A stretch of DNA of 64,000 nucleotides from Candidatus Nomurabacteria bacterium (GTDB lineage Bacteria; Patescibacteriota; Minisyncoccia; Phycocordibacterales; UBA9973): the NCBI GenBank assembly GCA_052035405.1, contig JBPOHQ010000007.1:12292-76291 (forward strand), read 5' to 3'. Shown piece after piece: positions 2,193 through 45,857 of this stretch. The position numbers were made by a program, and so were the translations under genes. Numbering within the stretch: position 1 is the stretch's first letter; each line of letters opens with the position of its first letter. The notes below the pieces were generated by a model. It saw only the letters and a program-made list of their open reading frames with translations, searched no databases and was not told the DNA's origin.

Positions 2193-2221
2193 TTGGCACT
2201 AAAACTTATCTAATGTATAAT
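2193..2221 (+). promoter_or_regulatory. Sigma70-like promoter: TTGGCA-17 nt-TATAAT, ~50 nt upstream of the RHS gene
   Basis: Exact -10 TATAAT at 2216-2221 and -35 TTGGCA at 2193-2198 with a 17-nt spacer. Confidence 0.45.
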
Positions 2222-2270: not shown

Positions 2271-5200
2271 ATGAAATCACATTTCGTCTCGGGATATATA
2301 TTAAAAAAGTTTCTCTCAGTTTTTCTTATAGTTTCCTTCTTTATGGCGCCACTAGCGCCTATTTTTGCGCAAGAGGCAACCTTGGATAATTCTGCACCTG
2401 TTAGTACAGAGTCATCATCTCCAGTGGTACTAGATATCCTTCCAAGTGTAGATACTTTGACTGTTACATCAAATGAAACAACGATAGATGCATCGCCACA
2501 GATTGATACCACACCTGTAGATACGCCTACGGATGTAATAACTGACCCAAAAGACGAAAAACCTATTGAAGAAGTACCTGTAGATGAAGTTCCAGTTGAA
2601 GAAGAACCTGAGATGATGATGTCGATGATGGGTGGCACTGGAGGATTCCTTGGAGATACTCGTGATTTACCCAATATCGGATTTCCATCAGTAGATAAAG
2701 CTTCTGGTGGATTGTCATATAGCTATCCTTTAACATTGCCTCCTGGAAGAAATGGACTAGACCCAAAGCTTGCTCTTGAATACTCTAGTCAAGAAAATGA
2801 CCAAGGTAATTTGTTTGGTTATGGTTGGAATATCAATATCCCATATATAAAAAGAATCAATAAAACAGGTATAGAAAAGCTATATACTGACAATTACTTC
2901 TACTCCTCACTCTCTGGTGAACTTGTGTTAGTCTCTGGTACTACCTATGCACCAAAAGTAGAAGACGGAAGATTTTTAACTTATACATTTGATGGTACAT
3001 ATTGGACAGTAAAGTCAAAGGATGGATCGGTATATAAGTTTGGATACAATGCTGGTGCAAGACAAAATAATTCCGGAGACACAAAGACTTTTAAATGGAT
3101 GTTAGAGGAAGAGCGCGATACGAATAATAACTATATTAAGTATGAATACTATAAAAATGGAGGCCAAATATATCCTGATACCATAAGCTACACAGGCAAT
3201 GCATCGACCGACGGTATTTTTACTGTTGTGTTCTCTAGAGCTAGTAGAAACGATGCTGTAACTCAAGATTTTGGAGTTTTTGATGTAACGACAAGCTATA
3301 GAATCAGTGAAATACAGGCAAATATTAACGGCACCTGGGCTAGAAAATATACTCTAGGATATTCAAATGGTGACAATAGCCAGAGATCGTTGTTAACTAA
3401 CATTACTGAAGCAGGACAAGATGAAAGTTCAAATACCACCACCCTTTCACCAGTAGAATTTACCTATCAAGTTGCTACAACATCGAGTGCTGACTTCGTT
3501 ACAGATTCAGCTTGGTCCACAGCTGCTTCATCGACAATAAATACAAACCCATCTTATGGAACAATTGTTGCTGATTTAAACGATGATGGTTTGCCTGATG
3601 TTATGGAATCTTGGAGAGGGGCCAATGATGTATGGTATAAAGGAACATATTTAAATGATGGTGATGGTACTTGGACCCAGGATACAAACCTAACTCCACC
3701 AATTGAATTTGCTGGTAACAGTCCATTGAATGAGTTTGGAATTAGATCAGTTGATTTAAATGCAGATGGTTTGACTGACCTTGTACAAAGTTACAGTAAT
3801 GGTCCAGGTCAAAGCAACACAATACAAAGAGTATATATTAATACTGGAACTTCCTGGTCTCTTGATACGAGTTGGCAGCCATCTTGTTTTTTTCTTGGTT
3901 GGCCGCAAGGGGATAGTGGTTGTAGGTTAATAGATATAAACGGAGATGATTTACCAGATTTCGTCAATGCTGTTGGTGATAACAATGGTAATTCACCAAT
4001 CACAACCTCAGTTTATTTAAACACTGGTAGTGGTTGGAGTAGTAGTTCTGGTTGGAGTATTCCAGTTGATTTGCGTTTCGGTGTAATGCTTGTTGATTAC
4101 AATGGAGACGGGTTGGTTGATATTTTGAAAGGATACAAAAATCCAGACGCTAATCCAGCTATTTATATACAAGAGGCGTATAAAAATAATGGGGATAAAA
4201 CTTGGTCTTCTGACAGTGCGTATACACCACCTGTATACTTTGCAGTTCAAACAAATGGTTCTTCCTTGCCAGTTGGTACAGGAATACAACTAGCCGACAT
4301 TAACGGAGATGGAATGATAGATATTTTACGAGGCAGTGAGACTACTGATGGCGCATATTTAAATAAAGGGAATGGTTGGCACTTAACTACTAACTGGGAT
4401 TTTGGACATGGATCAGTGCCAGTTACTAGTGCTTCGCCTGTTAGGTTTGGAGATTTCGATGGTGATGGAATGATAGACAGATACGAAACAAGTGGTAGTG
4501 GTGGTGCAACAATGCAGAAAAATCAAAATGTTAAAGCTGACTTGATGTCTACAGTTAAGAATCAGTACGGCGGTGTAACAACAGTTACATACAAAGGTTC
4601 ACCTAAATACACTAGTGGCGGTTCAATCTTAAATCCTGATTTACCATTTATATTAATGACGGTATATCAGACTTCTACTGATTCTGGTTTTGGAAATTCA
4701 AATATCGTAAACACATACTCCTATGAAGGGGGTGATTATTATTACAACACCATTACAGACAGAAGGTTCTCTGGGTTTAATAAAATATCGGTAAGTGATG
4801 GTACGACTAAAACCACTACTTTTTATCATCAGGGTAATGCTACAGATTCATCAAACGGAGAATACAGTGACCACTCTTCAAAAATTGGTAAAGTGTACCG
4901 AGTAGAAACAAGTGATACTTCTGGGAATGTATATAAAAAGGTTGTGAACAAATGGGATAAATATAATCAAGGCACAGGCCGAGATTTTGTTAAACCAGTT
5001 CGTTCCACAGTATTAACCTATGACGGTGATAGTGATCACAAAGATATAGCAGAGGAATATACCTATGACAATACTTACGGAAATCTAACAGACAAAATAA
5101 TGTGGGGTGAGGTTACTGGTTCCAATGATGGTTCATTCACCGATACTGGATCTGATAAATACACTGAGAGTATTTCATATACCGCTAATACCACAGACTA

Positions 5201-8200
5201 CATTGTGGGCTTACCATATCAAGATACAGTTGTTGACCAAAGTTCAAATAAAGTTCGCGAGTCAAAGACATACTATGATACTCAATCATTAGGCACAGTC
5301 ACTGATGGGAATATAACAAAAGTAGAAAGATGGAAGACGGGCAGTACCTATGTAAACACTCAAAAGGCATATAACACTACCTACGGCATCCCAACTTCTT
5401 CTACTGACGAACGAGGTAAAACTACCACTTATAGCTATGATTTATACAACCTGTATCCAGCTACAGTCACAAATCCACTGTCTCAGGCAGTAAGTTATAC
5501 TTATGACTACTCACTGGGTAAACCAAAGCAATTCACTGACCAAAACAGCTTTGTATATCAGACTGTTTACGACGGACTAGATAGAGTAAAAGAAGAAAAG
5601 GTTCCAGACTTGTCTTCACCATATTCTCCAATAACTAAAACTGCATATACCTACACCGATACTTCTGGATCTATAGCTGTACAGAAAACAGCATACCTTG
5701 ATGGTTCAAACACAGCTCTTTCATATACATACTTTGATAAACTAAATCGACCAATCCAAACTCGAGTAGAAAATGAGAGTGATTATAACGTTAAAGATTT
5801 CTTGTACAATGCAGCTGGATTACTACAAAAGGAATCCTTACCATATTCTTCTTCAGGTACTGCTATTACCACGGCTAACAGCACTGCATCACTCTATCAT
5901 AATTTCACCTATGATCCATTACAGAGAATTTCTACACAAGTAAACAATGTCGGAACAACTTCATATGCCTATGACGACTGGAAGACATCTATAACTGATC
6001 CAAATACTAAGTTAAAACACTATTACAAAGACGCATACGACAATCTAATTCGTGTTGATGAAACAAATAGTGGAAGTACATATAGTACCTATTATGAATG
6101 GAATGGTAATAAACTATTGACTAAGATTACTGATGCATTAAGCAATATAAGAAGCTTTACTTATAATGGACTTGGTCGCAGACTAACAGCGGAAGACATT
6201 CATGCTTCTGCTGATGGTACCTATGGTACTTGGACATATACTTATGATGATGCTGGTAACCTAACTCAAAGTGTGAACCCGAATAGTCAAACTGTTAACT
6301 ACACTTATAATGATATTAATCAAGTATTAACAGAGAATTATACAGGCGATACCGGAACTGAAATTACATACACATATGGAGGGTGCACCAACGGTACAGG
6401 TAAACTTTGTAGTATAAACATGCTAAATGGTGCAGATACTGATTATACATACAATTCAAACGGTGGTATTGCATCAGAGGTTAAGACAATAAGCAGCACA
6501 GGATATACCACTTCATACACCTATGATAGACAAAGTAACATTCTAGAAATTACCAATCCAGACAGCTCTAAGGTTAAATACAATTTCAATACCGCTGGAA
6601 CGATGGAAACTATCCAAAGAAAAGAGAGCGGTGATGCCAGTTATACCAATGTGATTACTGACATGGACTATGGCCCACACGGAAAGAATACTTACAGAGA
6701 ATTTCTAAATGGCATAAATACAACCAATACCTTTGATGCCACCAAGTTATACAGACTAACTAGAATAAATACAATAAACCCAAATGATACTTCCTCTGGT
6801 TCACCGACAACCACCACATTCTACGCTAATTCTTCCGGTGACGGTCATATCGAGGCTTACAATTCAAACTGGGACACTGTGCACGACAATACAGCTGGTT
6901 CTTATATATCTCGTACCGCTACAACGAACGAGGTTCAAGTACGCAGACATTCAGGTAATTATTATATTTTTAGAGAATTCTTACCATTTGATACTTCTTC
7001 TTTGCCAGACAATGCTTCTATTAGTGCTACAGATCTAAGTATATATATTACTGATAAATCTAATGTAGATAACGATGGTGATGACTTTGTTACTGTGGTT
7101 CAAACATCTCAAGCAAGCACTAGTGAATTAGATTACGAAGATTTTGACCAAGCTGGTGCAGTAAATAATCCTACCGAAGGTGTTGCTACTTCCGATAGAA
7201 AAGATATTACTTCTATCAGTAATGGCTGGCTTGCATTCCCATTAAACAGCACAGGAAGGTCTTGGATTTCAACTACTGGTTACACAAAATTAGGTCTTAG
7301 GGAGGGTCATGATGTATTAGACAATACTATAACCAACTTTGACGACGATAATGATGTAAATAGTATCAAGTTTAGATCTGCTAATTATAGCGGTACATCC
7401 TCTGACCCTAAATTAGATGTGACCTATACTATTCCTGTTGCTACCGACTTTCAAGACATTAATTACACTTATGATGCTAACGGAAATATCACCCAAATAG
7501 TTGATAGCTCAGATACTAATGCTTCTAAAACCGTTGTCTACACTTACGATGATTTAAATCGAATGCTAACCGCTACCGCTACAGGCGTGGCGGGTGGTCA
7601 AAGTACTTACACTCATACCTATACATATAACGCAACAGGTAACATAACATCGAGTCCTTTTGGAACTTATGACTATAGCAGTAGTGGTTTTGCAAATCCA
7701 CATGCAGTAACATCAATTGTAAATGCTTTGAATAATAATCCGGTGATTACCTTAACTGGTTCTGACTTGATTTATCTGAATCTGGGCGATTCGTGGACTG
7801 AACCAGGCTACAGTGCCACAGATGCAGAAGACGGTAATTTAACTTCTAGTGTCACTGTGACTGGTTCGGTGGATACAAATACATTAGGAGTCTATAAACT
7901 TATATATAATGTCACAGACTCAAGCGGTCTACCTGCAGCAGGTGTGGCAAGAACTATATCTGTTAGACAGCCTTATAACCCAAAAGTAAAAACATTGGTT
8001 GTGGCTGGTGGTGGTGCAGGAGGAGCTGGAGATGGTTATAGCGGTGGCGGTGGAGGAGGTGCTGGTGGAGTAATTGAAGATAATGCTTTTGGAGTAACAG
8101 CTCAGAATTATAGTATTACTGTTGGTGATGGCGGTAGAGTGACCTATGCAGAGAGTGGAAGTAATTCAGTCTTCTCTACATTAACTGCTGTGGGTGGTGG

Positions 8201-10232
8201 AGTAGGCGCAAGAAGTTTCTTTAATGGTACTAGTGGAGGTTCTGGCGGGGGAGGGTCCGCTACAAACAATGGAGGTACTGGTACATCTGGACAAGGTAAT
8301 AGTGGTGGAAACGGTGCTACTGGAAGTTATAAAGCTGGTGGTGGAGGAGGGGGTGCTACTGCTACCGGATCAAATGCTGGAGCATCCGATAATGGTGCAA
8401 ATGGCGGAGCGGGCATATCTAGCTCAATTACAGGAATATCTACTACTTATGCTGGTGGTGGTGCAGGAGGAGCTAAGAACAGTAACTATAACGGCGGTAC
8501 TGGTGGAACTGGCGGAGGGGGAAATGGTAGCGGAGTAAATGGATGTACCGCCGGAGCAGCAAATAAGGGCGGAGGCGGAGGCGGTGCAAGGGGCGGATCT
8601 GACCCTTGTGATGGGGGTAAGGGTGTAGTAATTATTGCTTACAAATCCGATGGCACTGATGGAGTATCATCTTCATCAACTGGTGGAACCATTACAACAT
8701 CAGGAGGATATCAAATACATCAATTCAATAGCAATGGTACTTTTGGTTCTGTTCTAAGTAATTACAATTCTCCAAGTAATAATAATCCAGTCATTACTTT
8801 GACCGGGCAGAGCGTGCTTAATGTCGCCGTCAACAGTACTTGGACCGAACCAGGCTATAGTGCCAGTGATACAGAAGACGGGAACTTGACTTCAAATGTT
8901 GTGGTGACTGGTTCGGTGGATACAGCAACCCCAGGTGTATACAACCTAGTGTACAGTGTTGTTGATTCAGGCAATGCTTCTGCTATAACAAAAGTTAGAA
9001 CTGTGTTAGTAAGTAATTCAGTTAGCACTACTAATTACTCTTACGATAACAATGGCAATATGCTTACCCAAACCAACGGTCTATCAAATACTTGGAATTA
9101 CAAAAACCAACTTACTCAGGCAGTAAAAGGAGGAGTTACTAGTACATACACCTACGATTACACAGGACAGAGAGTAAAGCTTGGAAATGGTACTACTACT
9201 ACCGTATATCCAAGTATGTATTACAGTACTGATGGAACTACAAAAACAAAGAGTGTTTATATTGGTGGAACACAAGTTGCTACTATAGAAACTGTTGGCT
9301 CTACCACAACTCCATACTATATACACACAGATCACTTAAATTCTATAAATGTAGTATCTGATAACACTGGAGCTAAGGTTGAATTACTAGATTACTATCC
9401 TTATGGAAGCACACGCATATCTTCTGGTTCATACACAAATCAAAAGCAATACATTGGGCAATACTACGATACAAACACCTCGTTAAATTATCTAAATGCA
9501 AGGTATTATCACAATACAAATGGACAATTTATATCTCAAGATCTAATGTTTTGGACATTACCCCAAGAATTACTTTTTGATCCACAACTACAAAATTCTT
9601 ACAGCTATGCAAGTAACAACCCTATAATCAATAGCGACCCGAGTGGACTTATAAGTAAGTCAGACTTTTCTCCGGGCAACATTGCAAATAGGATTAACAA
9701 CATCCTTAACTCTTATTTTGGAAAGAGTCAAAATCAAAATAGTCAAATTGTTAGCCCAATACAGACAAAACAAAATACAAATGTAAGTCAATTAACTGAT
9801 AATAAAATGGGTTCAGTTGATTATGGACAATATAATGTAACATCAACTAATCTACGCAACCGCCTGGATAAATTTGCCAATGATACCAATCAGAATATAA
9901 TTGTAACTTCAGGAGATCGCTCTTCTGAAAGAAACAAATTAGTTGGTGGCGCAAATGCAAGTAGGCACTTGAATGGTGACGCTGCAGATATTAAGGTGAA
10001 TGGTGTTCAAAATGAACAATTGTCATATATGGCAAATGCATCTGGATTATTTAATACAACTATTTATTATCCTGTAGTAGATTTACCGAAAGCACTTGCT
10101 CCTCACGTTCATGTCGACTTAAACCCCGCAAACAATAACATTTTAAGGATATATGTTCCTTATATGAAAGGTGATTCTATCGTGAATGATTATAAGCCCC
10201 TAATTAACCCCTTAATAAGGGGTAAGCAATAA
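2271..10232 (+). CDS. Sec-secreted giant polymorphic toxin (WapA-like / fused TcB-TcC-like architecture): signal peptide, acidic S/T/P-rich linker, SpvB-like domain, FG-GAP/VCBS beta-propeller repeats, RHS/YD-repeat shell, Ig-like and Gly-rich insertions, RHS core with DPxGL, C-terminal peptidase-M15 (MepK/YcbK-like) toxin domain
   Basis: 2653-aa ORF. N-terminal MKSHF...FAQE signal. SpvB-like LPNIGFPSVDKASGGLSYSYPLTLPPGRNGLDP. Repeated DxNxDGxxD motifs (DLNDDGLPDV, VDLNADGLTDL, IDINGDDLPDF, VDYNGDGLVDI, ADINGDGMIDI, GDFDGDGMIDR). More than 15 YD repeats (YTYDxxGNL...). RHS core YYIHTDHLNS...DYYPYG...ARYYHNTNGQFISQD...DPSGL. Confidence 0.9.
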   Translation: MKSHFVSGYILKKFLSVFLIVSFFMAPLAPIFAQEATLDNSAPVSTESSSPVVLDILPSVDTLTVTSNETTIDASPQIDTTPVDTPTDVITDPKDEKPIEEVPVDEVPVEEEPEMMMSMMGGTGGFLGDTRDLPNIGFPSVDKASGGLSYSYPLTLPPGRNGLDPKLALEYSSQENDQGNLFGYGWNINIPYIKRINKTGIEKLYTDNYFYSSLSGELVLVSGTTYAPKVEDGRFLTYTFDGTYWTVKSKDGSVYKFGYNAGARQNNSGDTKTFKWMLEEERDTNNNYIKYEYYKNGGQIYPDTISYTGNASTDGIFTVVFSRASRNDAVTQDFGVFDVTTSYRISEIQANINGTWARKYTLGYSNGDNSQRSLLTNITEAGQDESSNTTTLSPVEFTYQVATTSSADFVTDSAWSTAASSTINTNPSYGTIVADLNDDGLPDVMESWRGANDVWYKGTYLNDGDGTWTQDTNLTPPIEFAGNSPLNEFGIRSVDLNADGLTDLVQSYSNGPGQSNTIQRVYINTGTSWSLDTSWQPSCFFLGWPQGDSGCRLIDINGDDLPDFVNAVGDNNGNSPITTSVYLNTGSGWSSSSGWSIPVDLRFGVMLVDYNGDGLVDILKGYKNPDANPAIYIQEAYKNNGDKTWSSDSAYTPPVYFAVQTNGSSLPVGTGIQLADINGDGMIDILRGSETTDGAYLNKGNGWHLTTNWDFGHGSVPVTSASPVRFGDFDGDGMIDRYETSGSGGATMQKNQNVKADLMSTVKNQYGGVTTVTYKGSPKYTSGGSILNPDLPFILMTVYQTSTDSGFGNSNIVNTYSYEGGDYYYNTITDRRFSGFNKISVSDGTTKTTTFYHQGNATDSSNGEYSDHSSKIGKVYRVETSDTSGNVYKKVVNKWDKYNQGTGRDFVKPVRSTVLTYDGDSDHKDIAEEYTYDNTYGNLTDKIMWGEVTGSNDGSFTDTGSDKYTESISYTANTTDYIVGLPYQDTVVDQSSNKVRESKTYYDTQSLGTVTDGNITKVERWKTGSTYVNTQKAYNTTYGIPTSSTDERGKTTTYSYDLYNLYPATVTNPLSQAVSYTYDYSLGKPKQFTDQNSFVYQTVYDGLDRVKEEKVPDLSSPYSPITKTAYTYTDTSGSIAVQKTAYLDGSNTALSYTYFDKLNRPIQTRVENESDYNVKDFLYNAAGLLQKESLPYSSSGTAITTANSTASLYHNFTYDPLQRISTQVNNVGTTSYAYDDWKTSITDPNTKLKHYYKDAYDNLIRVDETNSGSTYSTYYEWNGNKLLTKITDALSNIRSFTYNGLGRRLTAEDIHASADGTYGTWTYTYDDAGNLTQSVNPNSQTVNYTYNDINQVLTENYTGDTGTEITYTYGGCTNGTGKLCSINMLNGADTDYTYNSNGGIASEVKTISSTGYTTSYTYDRQSNILEITNPDSSKVKYNFNTAGTMETIQRKESGDASYTNVITDMDYGPHGKNTYREFLNGINTTNTFDATKLYRLTRINTINPNDTSSGSPTTTTFYANSSGDGHIEAYNSNWDTVHDNTAGSYISRTATTNEVQVRRHSGNYYIFREFLPFDTSSLPDNASISATDLSIYITDKSNVDNDGDDFVTVVQTSQASTSELDYEDFDQAGAVNNPTEGVATSDRKDITSISNGWLAFPLNSTGRSWISTTGYTKLGLREGHDVLDNTITNFDDDNDVNSIKFRSANYSGTSSDPKLDVTYTIPVATDFQDINYTYDANGNITQIVDSSDTNASKTVVYTYDDLNRMLTATATGVAGGQSTYTHTYTYNATGNITSSPFGTYDYSSSGFANPHAVTSIVNALNNNPVITLTGSDLIYLNLGDSWTEPGYSATDAEDGNLTSSVTVTGSVDTNTLGVYKLIYNVTDSSGLPAAGVARTISVRQPYNPKVKTLVVAGGGAGGAGDGYSGGGGGGAGGVIEDNAFGVTAQNYSITVGDGGRVTYAESGSNSVFSTLTAVGGGVGARSFFNGTSGGSGGGGSATNNGGTGTSGQGNSGGNGATGSYKAGGGGGGATATGSNAGASDNGANGGAGISSSITGISTTYAGGGAGGAKNSNYNGGTGGTGGGGNGSGVNGCTAGAANKGGGGGGARGGSDPCDGGKGVVIIAYKSDGTDGVSSSSTGGTITTSGGYQIHQFNSNGTFGSVLSNYNSPSNNNPVITLTGQSVLNVAVNSTWTEPGYSASDTEDGNLTSNVVVTGSVDTATPGVYNLVYSVVDSGNASAITKVRTVLVSNSVSTTNYSYDNNGNMLTQTNGLSNTWNYKNQLTQAVKGGVTSTYTYDYTGQRVKLGNGTTTTVYPSMYYSTDGTTKTKSVYIGGTQVATIETVGSTTTPYYIHTDHLNSINVVSDNTGAKVELLDYYPYGSTRISSGSYTNQKQYIGQYYDTNTSLNYLNARYYHNTNGQFISQDLMFWTLPQELLFDPQLQNSYSYASNNPIINSDPSGLISKSDFSPGNIANRINNILNSYFGKSQNQNSQIVSPIQTKQNTNVSQLTDNKMGSVDYGQYNVTSTNLRNRLDKFANDTNQNIIVTSGDRSSERNKLVGGANASRHLNGDAADIKVNGVQNEQLSYMANASGLFNTTIYYPVVDLPKALAPHVHVDLNPANNNILRIYVPYMKGDSIVNDYKPLINPLIRGKQ
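2650..3130 (+). other. SpvB/TcB N-terminal-like domain of the RHS protein
   Basis: Motifs SYSYPLTLPPGRNGLDPKLALEYSS...GYGWNINIPYI. Confidence 0.6.
3540..4500 (+). other. FG-GAP/VCBS-type beta-propeller repeat region (six or more DxNxDGxxD blades)
   Basis: Calcium-binding-like loops recur every ~50-60 aa. Confidence 0.6.
5040..6560 (+). other. RHS/YD-repeat shell, main block (further YD repeats at 7450-7640 and 9030-9200)
   Basis: YxYDxxGNL/TxxxD repeats throughout. Confidence 0.8.
7731..7970 (+). other. Ig-like (DUF5011/HYR-like) domain, copy 1
   Basis: NNNPVITLTGSDLIYLNLGDSWTEPGYSATDAEDGNLTSSVTVTGSVDT...; paralogous to 8779-9012. Confidence 0.5.
7995..8650 (+). other. Gly-rich low-complexity insertion (GGxGG/GGGGGG blocks, ~215 aa) inside the RHS protein
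   Basis: Runs of GGT/GGA/GGC codons; ends ...CDGGKGVVIIAYKSDG. Confidence 0.7.
8779..9012 (+). other. Ig-like (DUF5011/HYR-like) domain, copy 2
   Basis: NNNPVITLTGQSVLNVAVNSTWTEPGYSASDTEDGNLTSNVVVTGSVDT...; about 70 % nt identity to copy 1 by eye. Confidence 0.5.
9030..9650 (+). other. RHS repeat-associated core domain ending in the DPxGL aspartyl-autoprotease motif (DPSGL at 9636-9650)
   Basis: YYIHTDHLNS, DYYPYG, LNARYYHNTNGQFISQD, DPSGL. Confidence 0.8.
9651..10229 (+). other. C-terminal toxin domain: peptidase M15A / DUF882 (MepK/YcbK-like murein peptidase) fold
   Basis: TSGDRSSERNKLVGGANASRHLNGDAADI (9909-9992) matches the SGYRSxxxNxxVGGAxxSxHxxGxAxDI signature; HVHVD (10104-10118) supplies the HxH zinc ligands. 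Confidence 0.7.
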
Positions 10233-10233
10233 T

Positions 10234-10830
10234 ATGAAAACCAAACACATAATAATTGTAATTTTATTCGTGATTATAACTTCATACTTATTACTTAATA
10301 ATAAATTTGGAAAAGTTGCGAATAGCTGGAAATTTCAAAAGGTTATTGGGCAAACAATATTCTTTTCGAATAATCAACAATTTAATATTAACTTGTATGA
10401 CCTAAAATACGTCGGGCAACTATCTTCAGGCAAAGATAATCCGTTTTTTATAGTTTCAGGTAGAACTTGTCATAATTGTGACGAGAATCTAGCTATATAT
10501 ATATATTCTCCTAAAATAGGACTTATTAAAGAAAATAACGAACCTATAAGGTATTCATACCCAGGGAAAGAATATGATTACTCAAACAATAAACTTATTT
10601 TCGAATCCAGAATGTTCTATGGCCAGTGCTTAGATAAAAACAGTAGTTCAATTATTTGGTTTCAAAAGGAACTTGGCTCAAATGAAGTTTACAAAGAAAG
10701 TGCATTTGCTTTAGAGGTTATAGGAGAAAATATAAAAGAATCAATCAAAAAAGATACTGATTTGAGTATAGAACAAATCATAAAAAATTGTAACGAATTA
10801 CCAGGTGTTGACGTTACTACTCAACCTTAA
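10234..10830 (+). CDS. Candidate cognate immunity protein (N-terminal membrane anchor, extracytoplasmic Cys-containing domain)
   Basis: Starts 2 nt after the RHS stop codon; MKTKHIIIVILFVIITSYLLL anchor; no recognisable family. Confidence 0.5.
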   Translation: MKTKHIIIVILFVIITSYLLLNNKFGKVANSWKFQKVIGQTIFFSNNQQFNINLYDLKYVGQLSSGKDNPFFIVSGRTCHNCDENLAIYIYSPKIGLIKENNEPIRYSYPGKEYDYSNNKLIFESRMFYGQCLDKNSSSIIWFQKELGSNEVYKESAFALEVIGENIKESIKKDTDLSIEQIIKNCNELPGVDVTTQP

Positions 10831-10996
10831 AGCATAAAGGCATCAGGAGCCTTTTCTGAAATAGAATTAAAAATTTTATGAAAAACTTACTTTCAAAAAT
10901 CCTAATCCTGCTCTTCCTACTTGCCCCACTTCAACCCCTCTTCGCCTCTGAATCTCAACCAGAGACCCTTGTCACATATATTTGATTTACCGTTTG

Positions 10997-11120: not shown

Positions 11121-11651
11121 ATGAACTACATCTATCATTGGGTTCCAAAAGATATGCAAGGAGATGTGCTTTTCCCTTTGAATGCACTTAAAAAGACGCA
11201 TCCTGATTTGTATAAGAAACAAGCAAGTAAATATGTCGGACGAGAACAAATAATGCAATACAGGCTTCCTGTGTTGAATTGTTTATGGAACGACGTATTG
11301 CATTTTTCTCCTGTTCATCCATCAGAAGTGAAACAGGCCTTGATTGAGGCGGGTAGAAAAAAGCCTTTTGATGTTGAATTTTTTGAAATAGATCCACATC
11401 TTTTAAATCCTGAAAACACAATTGTTTATTTATACAAAGACAGCAGTATAATCGATAAGACAGAGGAAAATAATTTTGTAAAGTATAATCCTGAAGATAT
11501 AGCTCAATATTCTGTATTGCCAAAGGAAACTAAGGATTATTATAAAGAAATGCTTTCTCAAGGTAAAAACCCTCTATTATTTCATCGAGTACCACACATC
11601 CTTTTCAAGGGTTCACTTAATACGTTAAAAATTAAAAGAATGAAATTCTAA
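11121..11651 (+). CDS. Hypothetical cytoplasmic protein
   Basis: 176-aa ORF, no family recognised. Confidence 0.45.
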   Translation: MNYIYHWVPKDMQGDVLFPLNALKKTHPDLYKKQASKYVGREQIMQYRLPVLNCLWNDVLHFSPVHPSEVKQALIEAGRKKPFDVEFFEIDPHLLNPENTIVYLYKDSSIIDKTEENNFVKYNPEDIAQYSVLPKETKDYYKEMLSQGKNPLLFHRVPHILFKGSLNTLKIKRMKF

Positions 11652-11923: not shown

Positions 11924-11933
11924 TTTCCAAAAA

Positions 11934-11955
11934 ACACCCCGATGAGGGTGTTTTT
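11934..11955 (+). terminator. Rho-independent terminator (acaccc-cgatga-gggtgt + T5)
   Basis: Perfect 6-bp stem followed by a T-run. Confidence 0.6.
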
Positions 11956-15877: not shown

Positions 15878-17230
15878 GTGCTTTTAACTTTATATAGAGA
15901 AATGCCCAAAAAACAAAAGATACAGGGAAAAATAAAAAAAGTTTCAGTCTTAAACAAGAAATCCACAAAGACCCTAAAAAAGCCTCAAATGAAAACACCT
16001 GTAAAAAATAAAAAAACTATTTCATTAAAAAAAACAACTAAAAAAAACACAGGCAAGTTCCTTAAAAAGAAAACCGTAGTCAAAGTTAAAAAAGTAGTGG
16101 CTAAAATTATAAAAAAAATTTCTGCACAGAAGGGTTCTAAGAAGATACTAAAAAAGAAGATAGTTAAAATTTCAAAGAAAAAAGTTGAAGATGTTTTACC
16201 AAAAGAAGGAATCAAATTAAGTAGGGCATATGCGAATCCTATTATCGAACCACGACTGTACTCTTGGGAATCAAAAGCTACGTTTAATCCAACTGCTTTT
16301 TTTTCAAATGGAAAAATACACCTCATCTACCGTGCTGTAGGCTGGGATGATATTTCCGTTTTAGGATATGCCTCTAGTTTTAATGGGTATAAGATTGAAG
16401 AACGTCCCCCATATCACATATATAGAAGATTCTCAAAAACAGAACCAATAGGACCAAAATTAGATTATGGATCTGGTGGTGGGTGGTCTGGAGGTTGTGA
16501 AGATCCTCGAATCACCCTTGTCGGAGATAGATTGTATATGTTATACACTGCCTTTGATGGTTGGAGTTCAGTACGTATTGCTTTGACCTCAATATCTTTA
16601 GAAGATTTTAGAAAACATCGCTGGGATAAATGGGAACACCCTGTCCTCATTTCTCCTCCAGGGGAAATAAATAAAAATTGGGTTATTTTTCCAGAGAAAA
16701 TAAATGGAAAGTTTGCCATTATGCACAGTTTTTACCCTAATATTTTAATTGACTATTTTGACACCTTGGATCATTTTGATGGCAAAACAAAATTTATCAA
16801 GAGTAATAATACCCGACCAGTAGATAAGACTCGAGGTTGGGATAGTTGGTTTCGTGGTGTCGGTCCGGCTCCCATGAGAATAAAAGAAGGTTGGCTCGTC
16901 TTGTATCATGCTATGGATCATAAAAATCCTGATAGATATAAAATGGGTGCACTCATACTCGACGGCAAGGATCCAACAAAAATTTTATATAGATCATCGC
17001 ACCCTATCTTGGAACCCGAAGCTCATTATGAGAATGAAGGGCATAAGTGGGGAGTGGTATATTCTTGCGGTGCAATTATAAAAGACGGAAGACTTTTTGT
17101 ATACTATGGAGGAGCTGATACGGTAGTTTGTGTTGCTTCGATTCCAGTAGCTGAATTAGTAGACCACCTGAAGAAAAATAAAGTAATAAAATTACAAAAC
17201 GATAAAATAGTAAAAACAAAAACAAAATAA
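15878..17230 (+). CDS. GH130 glycoside phosphorylase (beta-mannoside phosphorylase family) with an ~100-aa N-terminal Lys-rich tail
   Basis: GCEDPRITLVGDRLYMLYTAFDG GH130 signature; N-terminal KKxK repeats. Confidence 0.7.
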   Translation: MLLTLYREMPKKQKIQGKIKKVSVLNKKSTKTLKKPQMKTPVKNKKTISLKKTTKKNTGKFLKKKTVVKVKKVVAKIIKKISAQKGSKKILKKKIVKISKKKVEDVLPKEGIKLSRAYANPIIEPRLYSWESKATFNPTAFFSNGKIHLIYRAVGWDDISVLGYASSFNGYKIEERPPYHIYRRFSKTEPIGPKLDYGSGGGWSGGCEDPRITLVGDRLYMLYTAFDGWSSVRIALTSISLEDFRKHRWDKWEHPVLISPPGEINKNWVIFPEKINGKFAIMHSFYPNILIDYFDTLDHFDGKTKFIKSNNTRPVDKTRGWDSWFRGVGPAPMRIKEGWLVLYHAMDHKNPDRYKMGALILDGKDPTKILYRSSHPILEPEAHYENEGHKWGVVYSCGAIIKDGRLFVYYGGADTVVCVASIPVAELVDHLKKNKVIKLQNDKIVKTKTK

Positions 17231-17235
17231 AAAAT

Positions 17236-19167
17236 ATGTACGTAGCAAAAAGATCACAAAAAAATCCACTGATTGTTCCAAACAAAAATCATTACTGGGA
17301 AGAGTTTGCAACATTTAATGTGTGTCCAATAAAGAAAGGTGCTACTGTGTATGGTTTGTATCGAGCAATATCCGCATCAGATCAAATGCGTACCCCACAC
17401 CAAGTTTCTGTGATTGGTATTACAAAGAGTAAAGATGGGGAAAATTTTGGTGAGACAGATACTTTTATTATTCCAGAAAAAGAATGGGAACAATATGGTT
17501 GTGAAGATCCACGTGTCACGTATTTTGAGGGTAAATTTTATATTTTTTATACTGCATTATCCAAATATCCTCTTGGACCGGAAGGTATTAAGGTGGCTGT
17601 TGCTATCTCGAAAGATCTCAAAAAAGTAGAAAGTAGGCACTTTGTTACACCATTCAACGCAAAAGCAATGACCCTTTTCCCAGAGAGAATAAACGGGAAA
17701 ATTGTGGTTATGTTTTCAGCTCACACAGACATGCCTCCAGCAAAGATGGTTTTTGCTTATTTAGATAAAATCGAAGAATTATGGTCACCAATTTTTTGGG
17801 AAAAATGGAGTGAGAACATAAATAGTCACATTATCGATCCTCGACGGAATCCCTATGATCATGTCGAGGTTGGTGCTCCACCATTAAAGACAAGATATGG
17901 TTGGCTGCTTGTTTATTCTCATATACAGAACTATTTTCCAAATCCGGACAAACTAGCTCCAATCTTCGGTATCGAAGCAATTCTATTGGATTTAAAAGAC
18001 CCGACTAAAATAATAGGTCATACTCGAGGACCTATATTAGTACCGGAAGAACAATACGAGTTGTCTGGTTATATTGCTAATGTTATTTTTCCAAGTGGAG
18101 CACTTATTGAAAAAGATACGTTAAAGATTTATTACGGAGCGGCAGATACAACTTCTTGTATGGCAAGAGTAAACCTTACAGATCTTATTTACAGCATGCA
18201 TTATAGATATGCAGATACTTATCGTTTTAAAAGATTTTTAGGTAACCCTATAATTGCTCCAAAACCAGAAAACCCTTTTGAGTCAAAGGCCACATTTAAT
18301 CCAGCATCAGTAACCATAGGTGATAAGATTTATATTCTTTATCGAACTTTATCTGAAGACAACACTTCTACTATCGGTCTTGCTGTCACAAAGAACGGTT
18401 ACGATATCATAGAAAGACTCGATAAACCTATTTATGTACCAAGAGAGGATTTTGAAATAAAAAAGATTCCTAATGCAAATTCTGGTTGTGAAGATCCACG
18501 ATTAACGAAGATAGGCAATAAAATTTATATGTGCTATACAGCTTTTGATTCATATGGACCACCAAGAGTTGCTATCACTTCAATTTTAGAAAAAGATTTA
18601 GTTGCAAGGAATTTTAATTGGGCTAAGCCATTTTTAATTACTCCTGGAGATTTAGATGATAAAGATACGTGTATTTTGCCGGAAAAATTTAAAGATGGAT
18701 ATTTTGTTTTACATAGAATAAATAGCATGATTTGTGGTGATTATCTTAGTTCTCTTGAGTTTAACTCTGAACCTGTTAAAAAATGTTTGAGAATTTTAGG
18801 CCCCCGAATAAATACTTGGGATAGTCTCAAGGTGGGTATCGCATGTCCTCCTATAAAGACCAAAAAAGGCTGGTTGCTCTTATATCATGGCGTTTCAAAG
18901 AGTCATAGTACATACAGAGTAGGTGCAGTACTTCTCGATCTAAAAGATCCTGCAATAGTTCTTGCTCGAGGTAGTGAGCCAATCTTTGAACCAGAAGAAC
19001 AATATGAAAAGATTGGTATAGTAAATAATGTAGTTTTCCCTTGTGGTATGGAGGTTAAAAAAGATTTACTATTCATCTATTATGGTGGAGCAGATAGGGT
19101 TGTCGGTGTTGCCACGATGAAACTCGACATTATCCTTAAGACTCTCACAAACAGTATAAAATACTAG
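17236..19167 (+). CDS. Tandem double GH130 domain protein
   Basis: Two copies of the GCEDPR(V/L)T...Y(I/M)xYTA motif. Confidence 0.7.
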   Translation: MYVAKRSQKNPLIVPNKNHYWEEFATFNVCPIKKGATVYGLYRAISASDQMRTPHQVSVIGITKSKDGENFGETDTFIIPEKEWEQYGCEDPRVTYFEGKFYIFYTALSKYPLGPEGIKVAVAISKDLKKVESRHFVTPFNAKAMTLFPERINGKIVVMFSAHTDMPPAKMVFAYLDKIEELWSPIFWEKWSENINSHIIDPRRNPYDHVEVGAPPLKTRYGWLLVYSHIQNYFPNPDKLAPIFGIEAILLDLKDPTKIIGHTRGPILVPEEQYELSGYIANVIFPSGALIEKDTLKIYYGAADTTSCMARVNLTDLIYSMHYRYADTYRFKRFLGNPIIAPKPENPFESKATFNPASVTIGDKIYILYRTLSEDNTSTIGLAVTKNGYDIIERLDKPIYVPREDFEIKKIPNANSGCEDPRLTKIGNKIYMCYTAFDSYGPPRVAITSILEKDLVARNFNWAKPFLITPGDLDDKDTCILPEKFKDGYFVLHRINSMICGDYLSSLEFNSEPVKKCLRILGPRINTWDSLKVGIACPPIKTKKGWLLLYHGVSKSHSTYRVGAVLLDLKDPAIVLARGSEPIFEPEEQYEKIGIVNNVVFPCGMEVKKDLLFIYYGGADRVVGVATMKLDIILKTLTNSIKY

Positions 19168-21060: not shown

Positions 21061-22368
21061 TTATTTTAACTCTTTTAAGTGTTCGAGGAGTTTGCTTAGT
21101 TTAACTGTGTTTTGGGACCTATTAGACATATCTCTTACTATGACAGTGTTGTCTATTGCTTCTTTTGCACCAAAGATGAGTGCATAAGGAACTGCTAATT
21201 TTTCAGCTATAGCGAGTTGAGCACCAAGAGAATCTTTTGAGAGGGATTGAGCTATTGGTATGTGTGCTTTACGGAGAATCTCTATCACATTGAGACTTTT
21301 AAGTTTGGCTTCACTTCCTAATTGGATAAAGTATATCTTTGGTTTTTTCATGATTCGTGGAGCAAGTTTTTTGTACCAAGGAGAAGCGACAATACGGTCT
21401 ACGCCGATTGCCATCCCTACTGCTGGAACATCTTTCTTTCCACCGACTTGTTTTGCGAGATAGTCATAGCGTCCACCTCCGGCAATTGATAGAGGTGTAC
21501 CATCTTCACCACCTTTTTCTTCTATAACTTCAAATACTGTACGAGTATAGTAAGCGAGTCCTCGAACGAGATTTTTATTAATATTGTACTGGATACCCAT
21601 TTCTTCTAAGTATTCCAACACCTCCTTAAAGTGTTTCTTGCAAGATGGGCATAGGAAACTAATAGAGTCTGGTGCTCCTTCGTTGATTTCTTTTGTTTTC
21701 TCTTCTTTTGAATCAAGAATTCTAAGAGGATTTGTCTTTAATCTTTCTTTGTCTATCGCGGGGAGGGCAGAGAGATTCTTTTTATAGTAGTTTGTTAGTT
21801 CTTTGAGGTATCCGTTACGGCATTCTTTGTCCCCAATTGAATTTATATCAATAGAAAGATTCTCTGCACCAGCTTCTTCGAGAATACTCATACCTGCCTT
21901 TATTACAAGTGCGTCCATGATACTTTTATCACTACCTAATGCATCTAGGTCAAATTGATAAAATTGTCGGTAACGTCCGCGTTGAGGTTTATCATGTCTA
22001 AAAGATGGGCCGTATTGATAGAACAACACTGGTTGAGGGAGAGATTGCATCCCGTGTTCTATGTATGCACGCATTAAAGATCCAGTGTGTTCAGGTCGGA
22101 GTGCAAGCACATCGCCACCTTTTGTCTTTAGAATATACATTTCTTTATCTACTATATCTGTACCATCTCCTACACCACGAGAAAAAACTTCTTCGTGTTC
22201 CATCATTGGGGTCTCGATAGGTTTAAATCCGTAGTACACAGCGACTTCTTGAGCTTTCTCAAAGAAACCTTGGAAACTGTAGTATTCTTCATTTTTTATA
22301 TCACGCATTCCTTTTGGAGATGCGACTTCTCTCGCTTTATTTTCTTTTTTAGGTGTTGTTTTACTCAT
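21061..22368 (-). CDS. hisS: Histidyl-tRNA synthetase (native copy)
   Basis: Class II motif 2 FRHDKPQRGRYRQFYQ; C-terminal anticodon-binding domain. Confidence 0.9.
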   Translation of the reverse strand: MSKTTPKKENKAREVASPKGMRDIKNEEYYSFQGFFEKAQEVAVYYGFKPIETPMMEHEEVFSRGVGDGTDIVDKEMYILKTKGGDVLALRPEHTGSLMRAYIEHGMQSLPQPVLFYQYGPSFRHDKPQRGRYRQFYQFDLDALGSDKSIMDALVIKAGMSILEEAGAENLSIDINSIGDKECRNGYLKELTNYYKKNLSALPAIDKERLKTNPLRILDSKEEKTKEINEGAPDSISFLCPSCKKHFKEVLEYLEEMGIQYNINKNLVRGLAYYTRTVFEVIEEKGGEDGTPLSIAGGGRYDYLAKQVGGKKDVPAVGMAIGVDRIVASPWYKKLAPRIMKKPKIYFIQLGSEAKLKSLNVIEILRKAHIPIAQSLSKDSLGAQLAIAEKLAVPYALIFGAKEAIDNTVIVRDMSNRSQNTVKLSKLLEHLKELK

Positions 22369-32579: not shown

Positions 32580-34031
32580 ATGTTGAAAAGATATTTTGTA
32601 TTTGTGTTTAGTTTTGCCTCCTTATTATCTTTTAATTTTGTTGGTGCGAGTGTGGTTATAAATGAAGTTCAAATATCTCCGACAGGAGATAGATTTATTG
32701 AACTCTTTAATCAAGACGATACAGAGGTAAATCTAACTGATTGGTATATTCAAAGGAAGACGCAAACAGGCACGAGTTTTAGCTCGCTTGTATCCAGTAC
32801 AAATTTTGAAAACAAAAAAATCAAAGGGCATGAATACTTTTTAATTTCTAGAAGCTTACTCAATAATTCAGATATCGTAGTGAGCACCATGACACTCACT
32901 GATTCCAATGTGATTCAGCTTAAAAATCAAAGCGGTGATATCGTTGACAAGCTCTGTTGGGGAGATGTGACTGATTGTGGAACGGTTGTCGCAAACCCTA
33001 CTGAAGGGAAAAGTGTCGCTCGAGGTACAGGTGGAGTGGTTATAGGAACACCGACACCTAAAGCAGCGAATAGTACTTCAGTCGGTGCTTCGGAACAGCA
33101 ACCAAATGAAGGAGCTCAGACCGATACATCTACTGGAACTACTACATCAGGATCAGGTTCTTCTATAAGTAAAACTGTAGAAGGAAAAATAATTACAAAA
33201 GTTGCAGTTAAAAGTATCGCGTTTGCGGGACTGCAAACGTCATTTCAGGCAAGTACCTTAGGCAAGGATGGATTACCGCTTTTTTATGGTAGATACTACT
33301 GGAATTTTGGTGATGGTACCTCACAAGAGACAAAAGTAAGTGATGGCGGGATGGTATCGCATACGTATTTTTATCCTGGTGAATACACGGTAATTCTAGA
33401 ATATTACATAAATAGTTATGGAGAAATTCCAGATGCAACAGACACAGTAAATCTAAAAGTAACAAGCGTAGAAGTTTTTATTTCAAGTATAGGGGACCAG
33501 AAAGATTTTTATATTGAACTTTCAAACAACACTGGGAACGACATTGATATTTCAAAATGGATCCTCGTCTCGGGAGAAAAAAGATTCTCATTTCCAAAAA
33601 ATACTTATATAGGAGCAAAAAAGAAAACCACATTTTCTCCCGCAGTAACTGGTTTTACTTTCTCTGACAAAAATAATCTAAAGTTAGTAAATCAAGATTG
33701 GAAAACTATTTTTGATTACGGCTCTACTGTGAGACCTATTCAAGTTGTATTACCGATAACTTATTCTTCAAGTAAAAAAGTAGCTCAAAAAGAAAATAGT
33801 TCTTCGTATACAATCACATTAGGAGAAAAAGAAGAAGACATAGAAAAAGATACGTTGTTGAATGCTCTTGTTGCACGTGGTGTTCAAAATAATACACCAA
33901 AGACTGGTACGTACCTGTATATTATTTTCTTTATTATTTTAATTTCTCTTGCGGGTTTTCTGGTATATATTCTTCGTAGAAGAAAATTTGGGACCAAAGA
34001 AGGTGACGACTTTGACATTTTAGATGAATAA
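32580..34031 (+). CDS. Surface protein with two lamin-tail domains (LTD) and a PKD domain, C-terminal transmembrane anchor
   Basis: VVINEVQISPTGDRFIELFN (LTD); YYWNFGDGTSQE...HTYFYPGEYTV (PKD, ~33290-33410); C-terminal LYIIFFIILISLAGFLVYILRRRK. Confidence 0.65.
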   Translation: MLKRYFVFVFSFASLLSFNFVGASVVINEVQISPTGDRFIELFNQDDTEVNLTDWYIQRKTQTGTSFSSLVSSTNFENKKIKGHEYFLISRSLLNNSDIVVSTMTLTDSNVIQLKNQSGDIVDKLCWGDVTDCGTVVANPTEGKSVARGTGGVVIGTPTPKAANSTSVGASEQQPNEGAQTDTSTGTTTSGSGSSISKTVEGKIITKVAVKSIAFAGLQTSFQASTLGKDGLPLFYGRYYWNFGDGTSQETKVSDGGMVSHTYFYPGEYTVILEYYINSYGEIPDATDTVNLKVTSVEVFISSIGDQKDFYIELSNNTGNDIDISKWILVSGEKRFSFPKNTYIGAKKKTTFSPAVTGFTFSDKNNLKLVNQDWKTIFDYGSTVRPIQVVLPITYSSSKKVAQKENSSSYTITLGEKEEDIEKDTLLNALVARGVQNNTPKTGTYLYIIFFIILISLAGFLVYILRRRKFGTKEGDDFDILDE

Positions 34032-40300: not shown

Positions 40301-40640
40301 TGCCGTAAAAGATCCAAAGATTTTTGAAAGTGTGTTGCCAGGACTTGTAATCGAGCAAGTTATTGAAGAAAATGAACCTACTCCTTCAAAGGTCATTCCA
40401 ACTCAAAACTCAACACCAGATGAAGCAATAATAGAAGAAACATCAGTATCCGAAGAAACAAATGAGACTATCGGTGCTCCAGAAGTTTTTGATACAGCAG
40501 AAACACCAGAACCTTCAACAGTTACAGATACACAAGAAAATCTAAATGCACAGGTGACAGAAGTTCCTGCAGTGTCTACTTTCAAAGAGACAAGAGCAGT
40601 AGAAATGAGTAATGCACCAGAGACTTTGATTGCGGAGTAG
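34383..40640 (+). CDS. Giant (2085-aa) membrane-anchored tail-fibre-like surface protein with an internal peptidase-S74 intramolecular-chaperone (IMC) domain
   Basis: N-terminal transmembrane helix; recurring [14 protein letters not shown](S/E)I motifs (fibre-type repeats); IMC domain [23 protein letters not shown]...[12 protein letters not shown] at 39201-39600; a further ~340 aa follow. Confidence 0.8.
39201..39600 (+). other. Peptidase S74 / 'chaperone of endosialidase' intramolecular-chaperone domain (internal)
   Basis: DLAELY...GDVVAIH...[13 protein letters not shown]...GRVPVKV pattern. Confidence 0.65.
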
Positions 40641-40682
40641 TATCCTTTGAGATATAATTCTAAACGTAGTTAAATCACATTT

Positions 40683-41096
40683 ATGTTAAGAAAAAAATCA
40701 TTTAGAATTCTGTTGTTATTAGTTACTTTAGGAGCGATAGGCCTTGCAGGGTATTTTTATTATGAACTCAATAATCTTAAAAATAATCCTCAATCAATAA
40801 CTAAGAAAGAGGTTTCAGACCTTGTGGATAAAGTTTCTCGATTAGTTTTGTTACCCGAGAAAGAGATACCCACAGTAGCCACTGTGTCAGATTTAGAAAA
40901 ACTCAAAGATCAAAAGTTTTTTGCTAAAGCTCAAAAAGGAGACAAGGTACTCATCTATGCAGAAGCAAAGAAAGCATATTTATATTCTGTAACAAAAGAC
41001 AGAGTTATAGATATTGCACCCCTCAATTTAGGAAACAAAAAAGAATCAAATACAGAAATACAAAATAGTAATGACAGTAGTCTTATTATAGAGTAG
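40683..41096 (+). CDS. Small membrane-anchored protein, paralogue 1
   Basis: N-terminal transmembrane helix; PTVATVSDLEKLKDQKFFAKAQKGDKVLIY closely matches the next ORF. Confidence 0.5.
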   Translation: MLRKKSFRILLLLVTLGAIGLAGYFYYELNNLKNNPQSITKKEVSDLVDKVSRLVLLPEKEIPTVATVSDLEKLKDQKFFAKAQKGDKVLIYAEAKKAYLYSVTKDRVIDIAPLNLGNKKESNTEIQNSNDSSLIIE

Positions 41097-41130
41097 TTTT
41101 ATTTGGTTAATATTCTAGTCTCTTGCTATA

Positions 41131-41547: not shown

Positions 41548-41563
41548 TTTCTAAAATGGTCAG

Positions 41564-42586: not shown

Positions 42587-42647
42587 TTATCCACATTAAA
42601 AATAATGGTGCAGTTAGTTATTTATTGGTATAATCTAATTAATTTTT

Positions 42648-43892: not shown

Positions 43893-43905
43893 ATTTTAAT
43901 CGACT

Positions 43906-44931: not shown

Positions 44932-44942
44932 ACTTTTCTTTA

Positions 44943-45851: not shown

Positions 45852-45857
45852 TTACAT

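Follow-up and report, generated by a model that had tools for sequence, protein, structure and literature searches.

How might a bacterium use a toxin cocoon of the Tc type without the TcA subunit that would receive it, and what would such a cocoon be carrying? The question is raised by a locus of Candidatus Nomurabacteria (assembly GCA_052035405.1, contig JBPOHQ010000007.1), which lies in a stretch of 64,000 nucleotides (nt) analysed here as a whole and referred to as the window; positions in the window are counted from its first letter. A gene for a protein of 2653 amino acids (aa) is followed there, almost without a gap, by a gene for a protein of 198 aa. Judging from its shell repeats, its core with a DPxGL motif and its variable tail, the locus is an RHS/YD polymorphic toxin, and the cargo at the end of the large protein, with zinc-binding and catalytic motifs intact, is by sequence a zinc peptidase of the M15/LAS type. 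The small protein is a candidate immunity protein against this cargo, on the basis of conserved gene linkage. Taking the evidence together, we consider it likely that the locus encodes a Sec-exported, TcA-independent cocoon with autocleavage at DPSGL, an M15 cargo, targeting by modules inserted in the shell and a membrane-anchored protector encoded downstream.

Results

A TcB-like head and an RHS shell behind a predicted signal peptide

Domains were searched with Pfam and NCBIfam models and judged by their curated cut-offs. A preliminary description of the locus, made from the letters and the list of open reading frames (ORFs), had read into the 2653-aa ORF a Sec-like signal peptide, an SpvB-like domain, six or more FG-GAP blades, a long YD-repeat shell and an RHS core ending in DPSGL, and each of these elements was recovered (Table 1). 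The predicted signal peptide has a lysine-rich n-region and a hydrophobic core at aa 14-32, as judged from sequence and hydropathy profile, and all relatives analysed carry an equivalent one of the same type and position, ending in alanine and then acidic residues; the protein would be exported by Sec. Part of the SpvB domain (aa 145-221) matches the N-terminus of the TcB protein YenB in a search of PDB sequences. Further on, six DxNxDGxxD motifs (aa 435, 495, 555, 609, 676 and 728) follow one another at a spacing of about 60 aa, which fits a six-bladed propeller, and FG-GAP_3 scores above its cut-off.

The shell itself matches the RHS_repeat model PF05593 (55.9 bits, four stretches) and the YD repeat TIGR01643 (47.7 bits), both above cut-off, and among PDB sequences it finds RhsP (8h8a) and Tse5. 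It is closed by an RHS-associated core (TIGR03696, 55.6 bits against a cut-off of 32.5), whose DPSGL motif lies at aa 2456-2460, or nt 9636-9650, exactly where it had been placed. Both aspartates of the autoprotease are kept, D2424 in ISQD and D2456 in DPSGL, and autocleavage after DPSGL would be expected. One element had to be corrected: about 650 aa of what had been taken for a long YD shell belong to two inserted modules, inserts A and B, and are not YD repeats. The large protein gave no Pfam or NCBIfam match to a wall-binding family, nor to PAAR, VgrG or a VgrG-binding N-terminal domain, its N-terminus being the signal peptide.

A predicted wall peptidase as exchangeable cargo

The variable tail, earlier estimated at about 190 aa, measures 193 aa and is indeed exchanged among relatives; what had been missed is its apparent identity as a peptidoglycan peptidase. 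Peptidase_M15_3 (PF08291) covers aa 2526-2599 with 52.3 bits against a cut-off of 23.2, and the LAS motifs are present as GDR (2548-2550), S2564xH2566xxG2569xA2571xD2573 (S-R-H-L-N-G-D-A-A-D) and H2612-V-H2614. Across 14 aligned homologues of the C-terminal domain, the catalytic Arg, His and Asp and the HxH motif do not vary. The nearest named homologue of the domain comes from Nomurabacteria. Such a cargo would cut the stem peptides or cross-links of peptidoglycan, a substrate which lies outside the cytoplasmic membrane, so that release at the target wall would suffice and no membrane injection would be needed. M15-like peptidases have already been predicted as toxin domains of type VI secretion system (T6SS) effectors (PMC12135965), and the toxin type is therefore not new.

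Relatives of the toxin occur in Saccharibacteria, Gracilibacteria, Uhrbacteria and one Bacteroidales. Six were analysed, from Saccharibacteria, Uhrbacteria and Bacteroidales; the Gracilibacteria relative (L013; such numbers denote related loci), whose gene splits into several ORFs under translation table 11, was left out. In all six, the shell is common up to NNPI..SDP(S/T)G and divergence sets in right after it, in the C-terminal domain: the tails, of 170-200 aa, are unrelated, one matching Peptidase_M15_4, one PT-TG and the others nothing. Where these shells carry other C-terminal domains, unrelated small genes lie directly downstream. The comparison of neighbourhoods suggested in the preliminary description thus found the tail swapping that it was meant to look for, and it found orphan cassettes as well, on a contig of Candidatus Nomurabacteria RIFOXYD2_FULL_35_12 (MFWK01000029.1; L044, 1743-4462). 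Two cassettes stand there in tandem, each opening with a remnant of an RHS core: the first consists of a 264-aa gene and a 92-aa gene, the second of a 310-aa core-plus-M15 gene (58% identity to aa 2336-2653) and a homologue of the 198-aa gene (56% identity). No shell gene precedes them, and a terminase-like gene adjoins.

Two further observations concern the spread of such pairs. The relative with the Peptidase_M15_4 tail (L016 10768-12099, Saccharibacteria) is followed by an unrelated membrane protein of 228 aa, and would represent a second, independent pairing of a wall peptidase with an immunity-like protein on the same shell family. In two metagenomic lineages (L001 10001-20663 and L008/L009), type IV pilus and type II secretion system genes, a secretin among them, come after an RHS-M15/immunity pair, and the pair therefore appears to occur also in organisms with an outer membrane.

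A small, probably extracytoplasmic protein that follows the predicted peptidase

The 198-aa protein has no match in Pfam or NCBIfam, and yet belongs to a large family. A word-indexed search returned 15 relatives, and a profile search against 1.84 billion representatives returned 661 clusters at E <= 0.001, 140 of them at E <= 1e-30, almost all being single-domain proteins of ~180-250 aa. The alignment shows an invariant CxxCDEN, further conserved cysteines and a YPG motif, behind a transmembrane anchor in our protein and behind lipoprotein-type signals with lipoboxes in several homologues of Bacteroidetes type; this fits an extracytoplasmic location. In the AlphaFold2 model the protein forms an all-β domain (pLDDT 86).

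What ties this protein to the cargo is the company it keeps. Among homologues of at least ~37% identity, the upstream gene ends in an M15 domain at 11 distinct loci, and the orphan cassette of L044 makes a twelfth. These upstream genes are otherwise diverse: full SpvB-RHS proteins (the window and L005); RHS proteins in which no SpvB was detected (L001, and L008 with its copies, which are 5'-truncated); M15 proteins of 377 aa and 264 aa (L002/L003 and L032/L033), those of L002 and L032 without any shell, L002 having a short protein of core and C-terminal domain; genes on truncated contigs (L019-L021, L025 and L026); and a fragmented gene (L010). The 198-aa gene thus goes with the M15 peptidase, not with the shell, as would be expected if it conferred immunity.

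Two modules inserted in the shell

Insert A resembles a DNRLRE β-sandwich and also has a weak match to TGFb_propeptide. L005 and L012 have it, L017 lacks most of it, and L014, L015, L016 and L018 lack it; all or most of aa 1504-1722 is missing from the ~2000-aa relatives in Saccharibacteria, Uhrbacteria and a Bacteroidales metagenome-assembled genome. Insert B is a cassette in which Bact_surface_Ig-like (two copies) and Gly_rich_2 score above their curated Pfam cut-offs, the glycine-rich module being assigned by family model and by fold to the Gly_rich_2/polyproline II (PPII) bundle domains. An orthologue on a Logan contig (L005), 87-88% identical and collinear, lacks exactly aa 1817-2249, with a junction between NPHAVTSI and STNYSYD; we looked for microhomology or repeats at the junctions as an explanation of this insertion or deletion, and saw none. 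A Saccharibacteria relative (L012, 62% identical, 2665 aa from stop to stop) is collinear through aa 1979. It therefore contains insert A together with no less than the beginning of insert B, and the entire cassette would fit its total length.

Gly_rich_2 is common among small secreted or pilin-like proteins and rare among RHS proteins, and our literature searches returned nothing on it. The module does resemble glycine-rich domains of phage tails. In Pam3, the glycine-rich lattice is described as the fibre tip that recognises the host receptor (PMC9608196), and on structural grounds it has been classed with gp33 and the S16 gp38 adhesin (PMC13243192). In Bxb1, gp31 links gp33 to gp30, which is a D-Ala-D-Ala carboxypeptidase (PMC12646305); a glycine-rich module is thus joined there to a wall enzyme of the M15 type, much as insert B is to the M15 cargo in our protein. 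There is precedent for the placement too: in the solved structure of mosquito SGS1, receptor domains interrupt the Rhs/YD repeats and are exposed on the shell (PMC9935623). From fold similarity, this precedent and the presence or absence of the cassette in near-identical orthologues, we infer that inserts A and B decorate the outside of the cocoon and serve in binding; by analogy with its phage homologues, the Gly_rich_2 domain would bind a receptor on the cell surface.

Arrangement and expression of the two genes

The toxin gene ends in TAA at 10230-10232, a single T follows, and the ATG of the 198-aa gene begins at 10234, which bears out the earlier account of a membrane-anchored protein encoded in tight coupling downstream. 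A Shine-Dalgarno-like AAGGGG lies about 10 nt 5' of this ATG. No terminator-like site was found between the two genes, which lie one base apart; co-transcription is therefore very probable, and the second gene may plausibly be translated in coupling with the first.

The match to a promoter upstream of the toxin gene, from which autonomous expression had been proposed, exists and is the joint best of the scanned region. This AT-rich DNA held 38 promoter-like sites against 42.6 +/- 6.4 in shuffled sequence; the count is not raised, and the match is therefore no evidence of a promoter by itself. A promoter at 2193-2221 is plausible from its consensus, and the proposal of autonomous expression was dropped. 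A second such site, TTGCCA-16-TATAAT at 9874-9901 (+), likewise with 11 of 12 consensus positions, lies within the coding region of the toxin domain, some 330 nt before the immunity ATG; if this consensus match is real, it could allow the immunity gene to be expressed independently of the toxin.

Two small ORFs follow the pair. The first, just 3' of the immunity candidate, has 35 aa (10879-10986, +; MKNLLSKILILLFLLAPLQPLFASESQPETLVTYI) and resembles an RHS-type signal peptide (compare ...FMAPLAPIFAQE), so that it may be the remnant of a lost downstream toxin gene. The second, of 176 aa (11121-11651, +), lacks a signal peptide and any significant family match. Placed after the immunity gene and before the first terminator-like hairpin (11930-11955), it may share the transcript of the pair. 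No further RHS core, M15 domain or copy of the immunity gene turned up when the window was searched for them.

Table 1. Features of the toxin locus, in window coordinates (nt).
Feature	Position	Strand	Basis
Promoter-like TTGGCA-17-TATAAT	2193-2221	+	50 nt 5' of toxin start codon; 11/12 consensus matches, joint best of scanned region
2653-aa RHS polymorphic toxin gene	2271-10232, including stop codon	+	ATG start; ORF list and translation
Sec-type signal peptide, aa 1-33, predicted cleavage between IFA and QE	2271-2369	+	Sequence and hydropathy profile
Acidic Thr/Pro/Val/Glu-rich low-complexity linker, aa 34-125	2370-2645	+	Composition; no domain match
SpvB/TcB N-terminal domain, aa 144-297	2700-3161	+	PF03534, 55.6 bits (cut-off 22)
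Six-bladed FG-GAP β-propeller, aa ~425-745	3543-4505	+	FG-GAP_3, 47.3 bits, three stretches
YD/RHS shell, first part, aa ~780-1503	4608-6779	+	RHS_repeat/YD_repeat matches; collinear with all relatives analysed
Insert A, DNRLRE-like β-sandwich module, aa 1504-1722	6780-7436	+	NF033679, E 4e-7, model positions 18-164 of 164
YD shell segment between inserts, aa 1723-1816	7437-7718	+	Best RHS_repeat stretch aa 1734-1770; kept in all relatives analysed
Insert B, Ig-like/Gly_rich_2/Ig-like cassette, aa 1817-2249	7719-9017	+	Ig-like 1 at aa 1826-1898; Gly_rich_2 at aa 1896-2125; Ig-like 2 at cassette end
Last YD repeats and RHS-associated core	9018-9650	+	TIGR03696, aa 2375-2460 (nt 9393-9650)
C-terminal toxin domain, aa 2461-2653 (193 aa): linker and predicted Peptidase_M15_3/LAS zinc peptidase	9651-10229	+	PF08291
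198-aa candidate immunity gene	10234-10830	+	ORF list and translation
198-aa protein: N-terminal membrane anchor and all-β ectodomain with four conserved Cys	10234-10830	+	Alignment, model, gene linkage

The producer and its genomic surroundings

The window is chromosomal, with genes for DnaE, histidyl-tRNA synthetase, GAPDH, MscL and MsrA and a GC content of ~35%. One of its ORFs (41564-42583, +) matches the NCBIfam model CPR_Pam_pilin_C with 70.1 bits (cut-off 55) and has a weak match to PamT. The Pam pilin domain is described as exclusive to the candidate phyla radiation (CPR), whose members are described as lacking an outer membrane (bioRxiv 10.64898/2026.03.03.709456), in keeping with the Gram-positive-like envelope that the preliminary description had assumed. 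From this match and the taxonomy of the toxin's relatives, the producer is a CPR/Patescibacteria bacterium.

No TcA-type domain was found among the scanned ORFs of these 64 kb of genome, nor any TcA-like or giant gene beside any of the six relatives; the earlier remark that a TcA partner is missing holds at all these loci. The region from 34383 to 48715 (+) points to a CPR-type Pam pilus locus, although the scanned ORFs around the pilin gene, from 40683 to 48715, had no Pfam match and the 2085-aa ORF directly upstream (34383-40640) had none in Pfam, NCBIfam or PDB sequences. A surface protein with LTD and PKD domains is encoded just before it (32580-34031).

Elsewhere, the window holds two histidyl-tRNA-synthetase-like genes (54947-56239, +, and 21061-22368, -), the former without an anticodon-binding-domain match and hence HisZ-like. 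Two adjacent GH130 genes of the mannoside phosphorylase type follow a mannose-1-phosphate guanylyltransferase-like gene (15878-19167, +), and sulfatase genes lie at 50960-54867; by their annotation, the GH130 and sulfatase genes suggest glycan scavenging.

Discussion

How could the parts of this locus work together? We posit that the 2653-aa protein would leave the cell by Sec and that, outside, its SpvB domain, six-bladed propeller and YD/RHS shell would form a cocoon of the TcB-TcC type, a fold proposed by analogy with solved Tc and Rhs homologues. Within it, the aspartyl protease of the RHS core (D2424 and D2456) would cut after DPSGL and leave the 193-aa domain loose inside the shell. Inserts A and B, on the outside, would bind the surface of the target and so stand in for the absent receptor-binding subunit TcA, and the M15/LAS cargo, freed at the target wall, would cut stem peptides or cross-links with no membrane to traverse. 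Translation of the 198-aa protein is probably coupled to that of the toxin; fixed to the membrane by its anchor, with the cysteine-containing β-domain facing outwards, the protein would bind and block the peptidase and so shield the wall of the producer. The target might be a competitor, or the bacterium that hosts the episymbiont.

Several observations weigh against this scenario. The cargo is only weakly similar to characterised enzymes (22.7 bits to MepK, where the cut-off is 185, and E 0.13 to the Streptomyces DD-carboxypeptidase 1LBU), and insert A reaches 30.2 bits against the DNRLRE model NF033679, below the cut-off of 34, with nearly full-length coverage. Besides the two inserts, no wall-anchoring or adhesion domain was identified in the large protein, and the scenario itself offers no exit route for the cargo from a cocoon that has neither TcA nor a T6SS spike. 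As for the 198-aa protein, its model found no match in the PDB at E <= 0.001 (Foldseek), so that no known immunity fold could be assigned to it. Furthermore, a homologue of ~50% identity (L006) and those at eleven distinct loci with identities of 35% or less have no M15 neighbour: six upstream and two downstream ORFs around these solitary homologues, scanned with Pfam, are unrelated or without a match. We therefore had to give up the notion that every member of the family is linked to a toxin; L006 and all examined homologues of 35% identity or less stand alone, and the family is not exclusively toxin-linked.

Could the same parts serve an attack on the host? The cocoon would then dock on the host via its phage-like module and the peptidase would open the host wall locally, to attach or to take up nutrients, and the role of the 198-aa protein would be confined to protecting the producer's own wall. 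The producer is of CPR origin, and CPR bacteria live as epibionts on other bacteria, their hosts; the glycine-rich module is similar to domains of phage tails, and in Bxb1 such a module is mounted together with a host-directed wall peptidase; and the gain or loss of the cassette between close relatives would fit a switching of target specificity. Polymorphic tails, cognate immunity genes and orphan cassettes are, on the other hand, the classic signature of antagonism between related bacteria, and homologous M15/immunity pairs occur in organisms of Bacteroidetes type that are probably free-living. We regard such a feeding tool as a tentative and somewhat unlikely reading. Much further down the scale stands the possibility that a classical ABC (Tc) toxin has the large protein as its BC subunit, taken up by a TcA pentamer that is encoded elsewhere and injects the cargo. 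The architecture of SpvB, FG-GAP propeller and RHS is that of TcB-TcC, down to an N-terminus that matches YenB, and our view is of 64 kb of the genome; yet no TcA-type match exists in it, the six related loci have no giant neighbour, and the large unassigned ORF of the window (34383-40640; 2085 aa) matches nothing in Pfam, NCBIfam or PDB sequences. Moreover, the Sec signal peptide here and in all relatives analysed, the immunity-type gene alongside and a peptidoglycan-acting cargo that needs no membrane injection make a Tc partnership highly improbable.

Two further readings would do away with the toxin or with its immunity protein, and both strike us as very unlikely. The large protein might serve at the surface as an adhesin or scaffold and remodel the wall of its own cell through the M15 domain, as an autolysin acting for example in division or pilus passage, with the 198-aa protein as its regulator. 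Housekeeping and phage wall enzymes are common among M15 peptidases, as the weak matches to MepK and 1LBU recall, and the wider 198-aa family often stands alone. A housekeeping autolysin would not, however, be expected behind an intact RHS core and autoprotease motif, nor in an orphan core-plus-C-terminal-domain/immunity cassette, and orthologous shells swap the peptidase for unrelated tails, one of them with the pre-toxin domain PT-TG. Alternatively, the 198-aa protein could be an accessory for the export, folding or release of the cocoon, a role to which its membrane anchor near the site of Sec exit and its lack of resemblance to known immunity families or folds would be suited. It tracks the M15 domain, however, and not the shell, following even the shell-less M15 proteins of L002 and L032, and behind homologous shells with other tails it is replaced by unrelated genes.

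Within our searches, three elements of this locus are new: an exchangeable cassette, similar to the glycine-rich domains of phage tails, within the RHS shell of a bacterium; the combination of this cassette with an M15 cargo; and a candidate immunity family without annotation. Few large surface proteins of CPR/Patescibacteria have an assigned function, and the locus provides a concrete candidate for attack or attachment, with a secreted cocoon, a wall peptidase and a putative targeting module. It would also be a natural system in which to study how RHS cocoons release their cargo without TcA or a T6SS spike, and the orthologues with and without the cassette, 87-88% identical, are a ready comparison for asking whether shell insertions set target specificity. 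The 198-aa family, with 661 clusters, no Pfam or NCBIfam model and no match among solved structures, may prove to be widespread inhibitors of M15 peptidoglycan peptidases. Perhaps these threads belong together: CPR episymbionts and some Bacteroidales would possess a self-sufficient, Sec-exported cocoon of the Tc type, in which the receptor role of TcA has moved into exchangeable shell cassettes, whose gain and loss retarget a wall-cutting cargo, the inhibitors of which are the 661-cluster family. We offer this larger picture as a speculation that may well turn out wrong.

Comparison with known systems

A close architecture is that of the fused TcB-TcC (BC) cocoons such as YenB/YenC and TcdB2-TccC3, with which the large protein shares the SpvB domain, the six-bladed FG-GAP-type propeller, the YD/RHS shell and the RHS core with an aspartyl autoprotease motif, followed by a hypervariable C-terminal cargo of ~190 aa. 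In contrast to these cocoons, it has a Sec signal peptide, a candidate immunity gene downstream, no TcA in the window or at related loci, ~650 aa of extra shell modules, and a predicted peptidoglycan peptidase as cargo, which would imply a bacterial target. With WapA/WapI of Bacillus subtilis and the other RHS toxins that monoderms export by Sec, the locus shares its signal peptide and RHS shell, a tail that is polymorphic, an immunity gene (here a candidate) as the next gene downstream, and a producer that lacks an outer membrane. Unlike WapA, it has no detected wall-binding N-terminal domain and starts with a TcB-like head of SpvB and propeller; its cargo appears to be a wall peptidase and not a nuclease, and its immunity candidate is probably extracytoplasmic, whereas that of WapA is cytoplasmic.

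Within the CPR, our literature search on RHS toxins in Saccharibacteria, Patescibacteria or CPR found one passing mention, for the Saccharibacteria genome 'T. rhizospherense' (PMC6031116): a giant secreted toxin of the RHS/YD type that carries PA14 and galactose-binding domains, with an immunity gene as its neighbour. It resembles our locus in its CPR producer, its secretion, its size of ~2500 aa, the presence of additional binding domains and the adjacent immunity gene, and differs in those binding domains, which here are DNRLRE-like and Ig/Gly_rich_2/Ig. The class is therefore not new for the CPR. Receptor- or carbohydrate-binding domains inserted in Rhs/YD sequence and shown on the shell are also shared with mosquito SGS1 (PMC9935623) and teneurins, which, by contrast, are eukaryotic, carry other inserted folds (carbohydrate-binding module, lectin carbohydrate-recognition domain, NHL) and have neither a peptidase cargo nor an immunity gene. 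The glycine-rich PPII-bundle domains of phage tails (the 'wing brush' gp33 of Bxb1, gp24 of cyanophage Pam3 and gp38 of S16) sit at the tip of a tail fibre, whereas here the module is an internal shell cassette flanked by Ig domains. With the peptidoglycan peptidase effectors of the T6SS, such as the M15-like WHIX effectors (PMC12135965), the locus has in common a wall-targeting peptidase and an extracytoplasmic immunity candidate; unlike them, it has no PAAR, VgrG or WHIX domain, and its immunity family is unrelated and unannotated. As neither the TcA partner of a Tc toxin, nor the wall-binding domain of WapA, nor the N-terminal domains of T6SS effectors were found at this locus, its product would be best described as a Sec-exported, stand-alone RHS toxin of the BC type.

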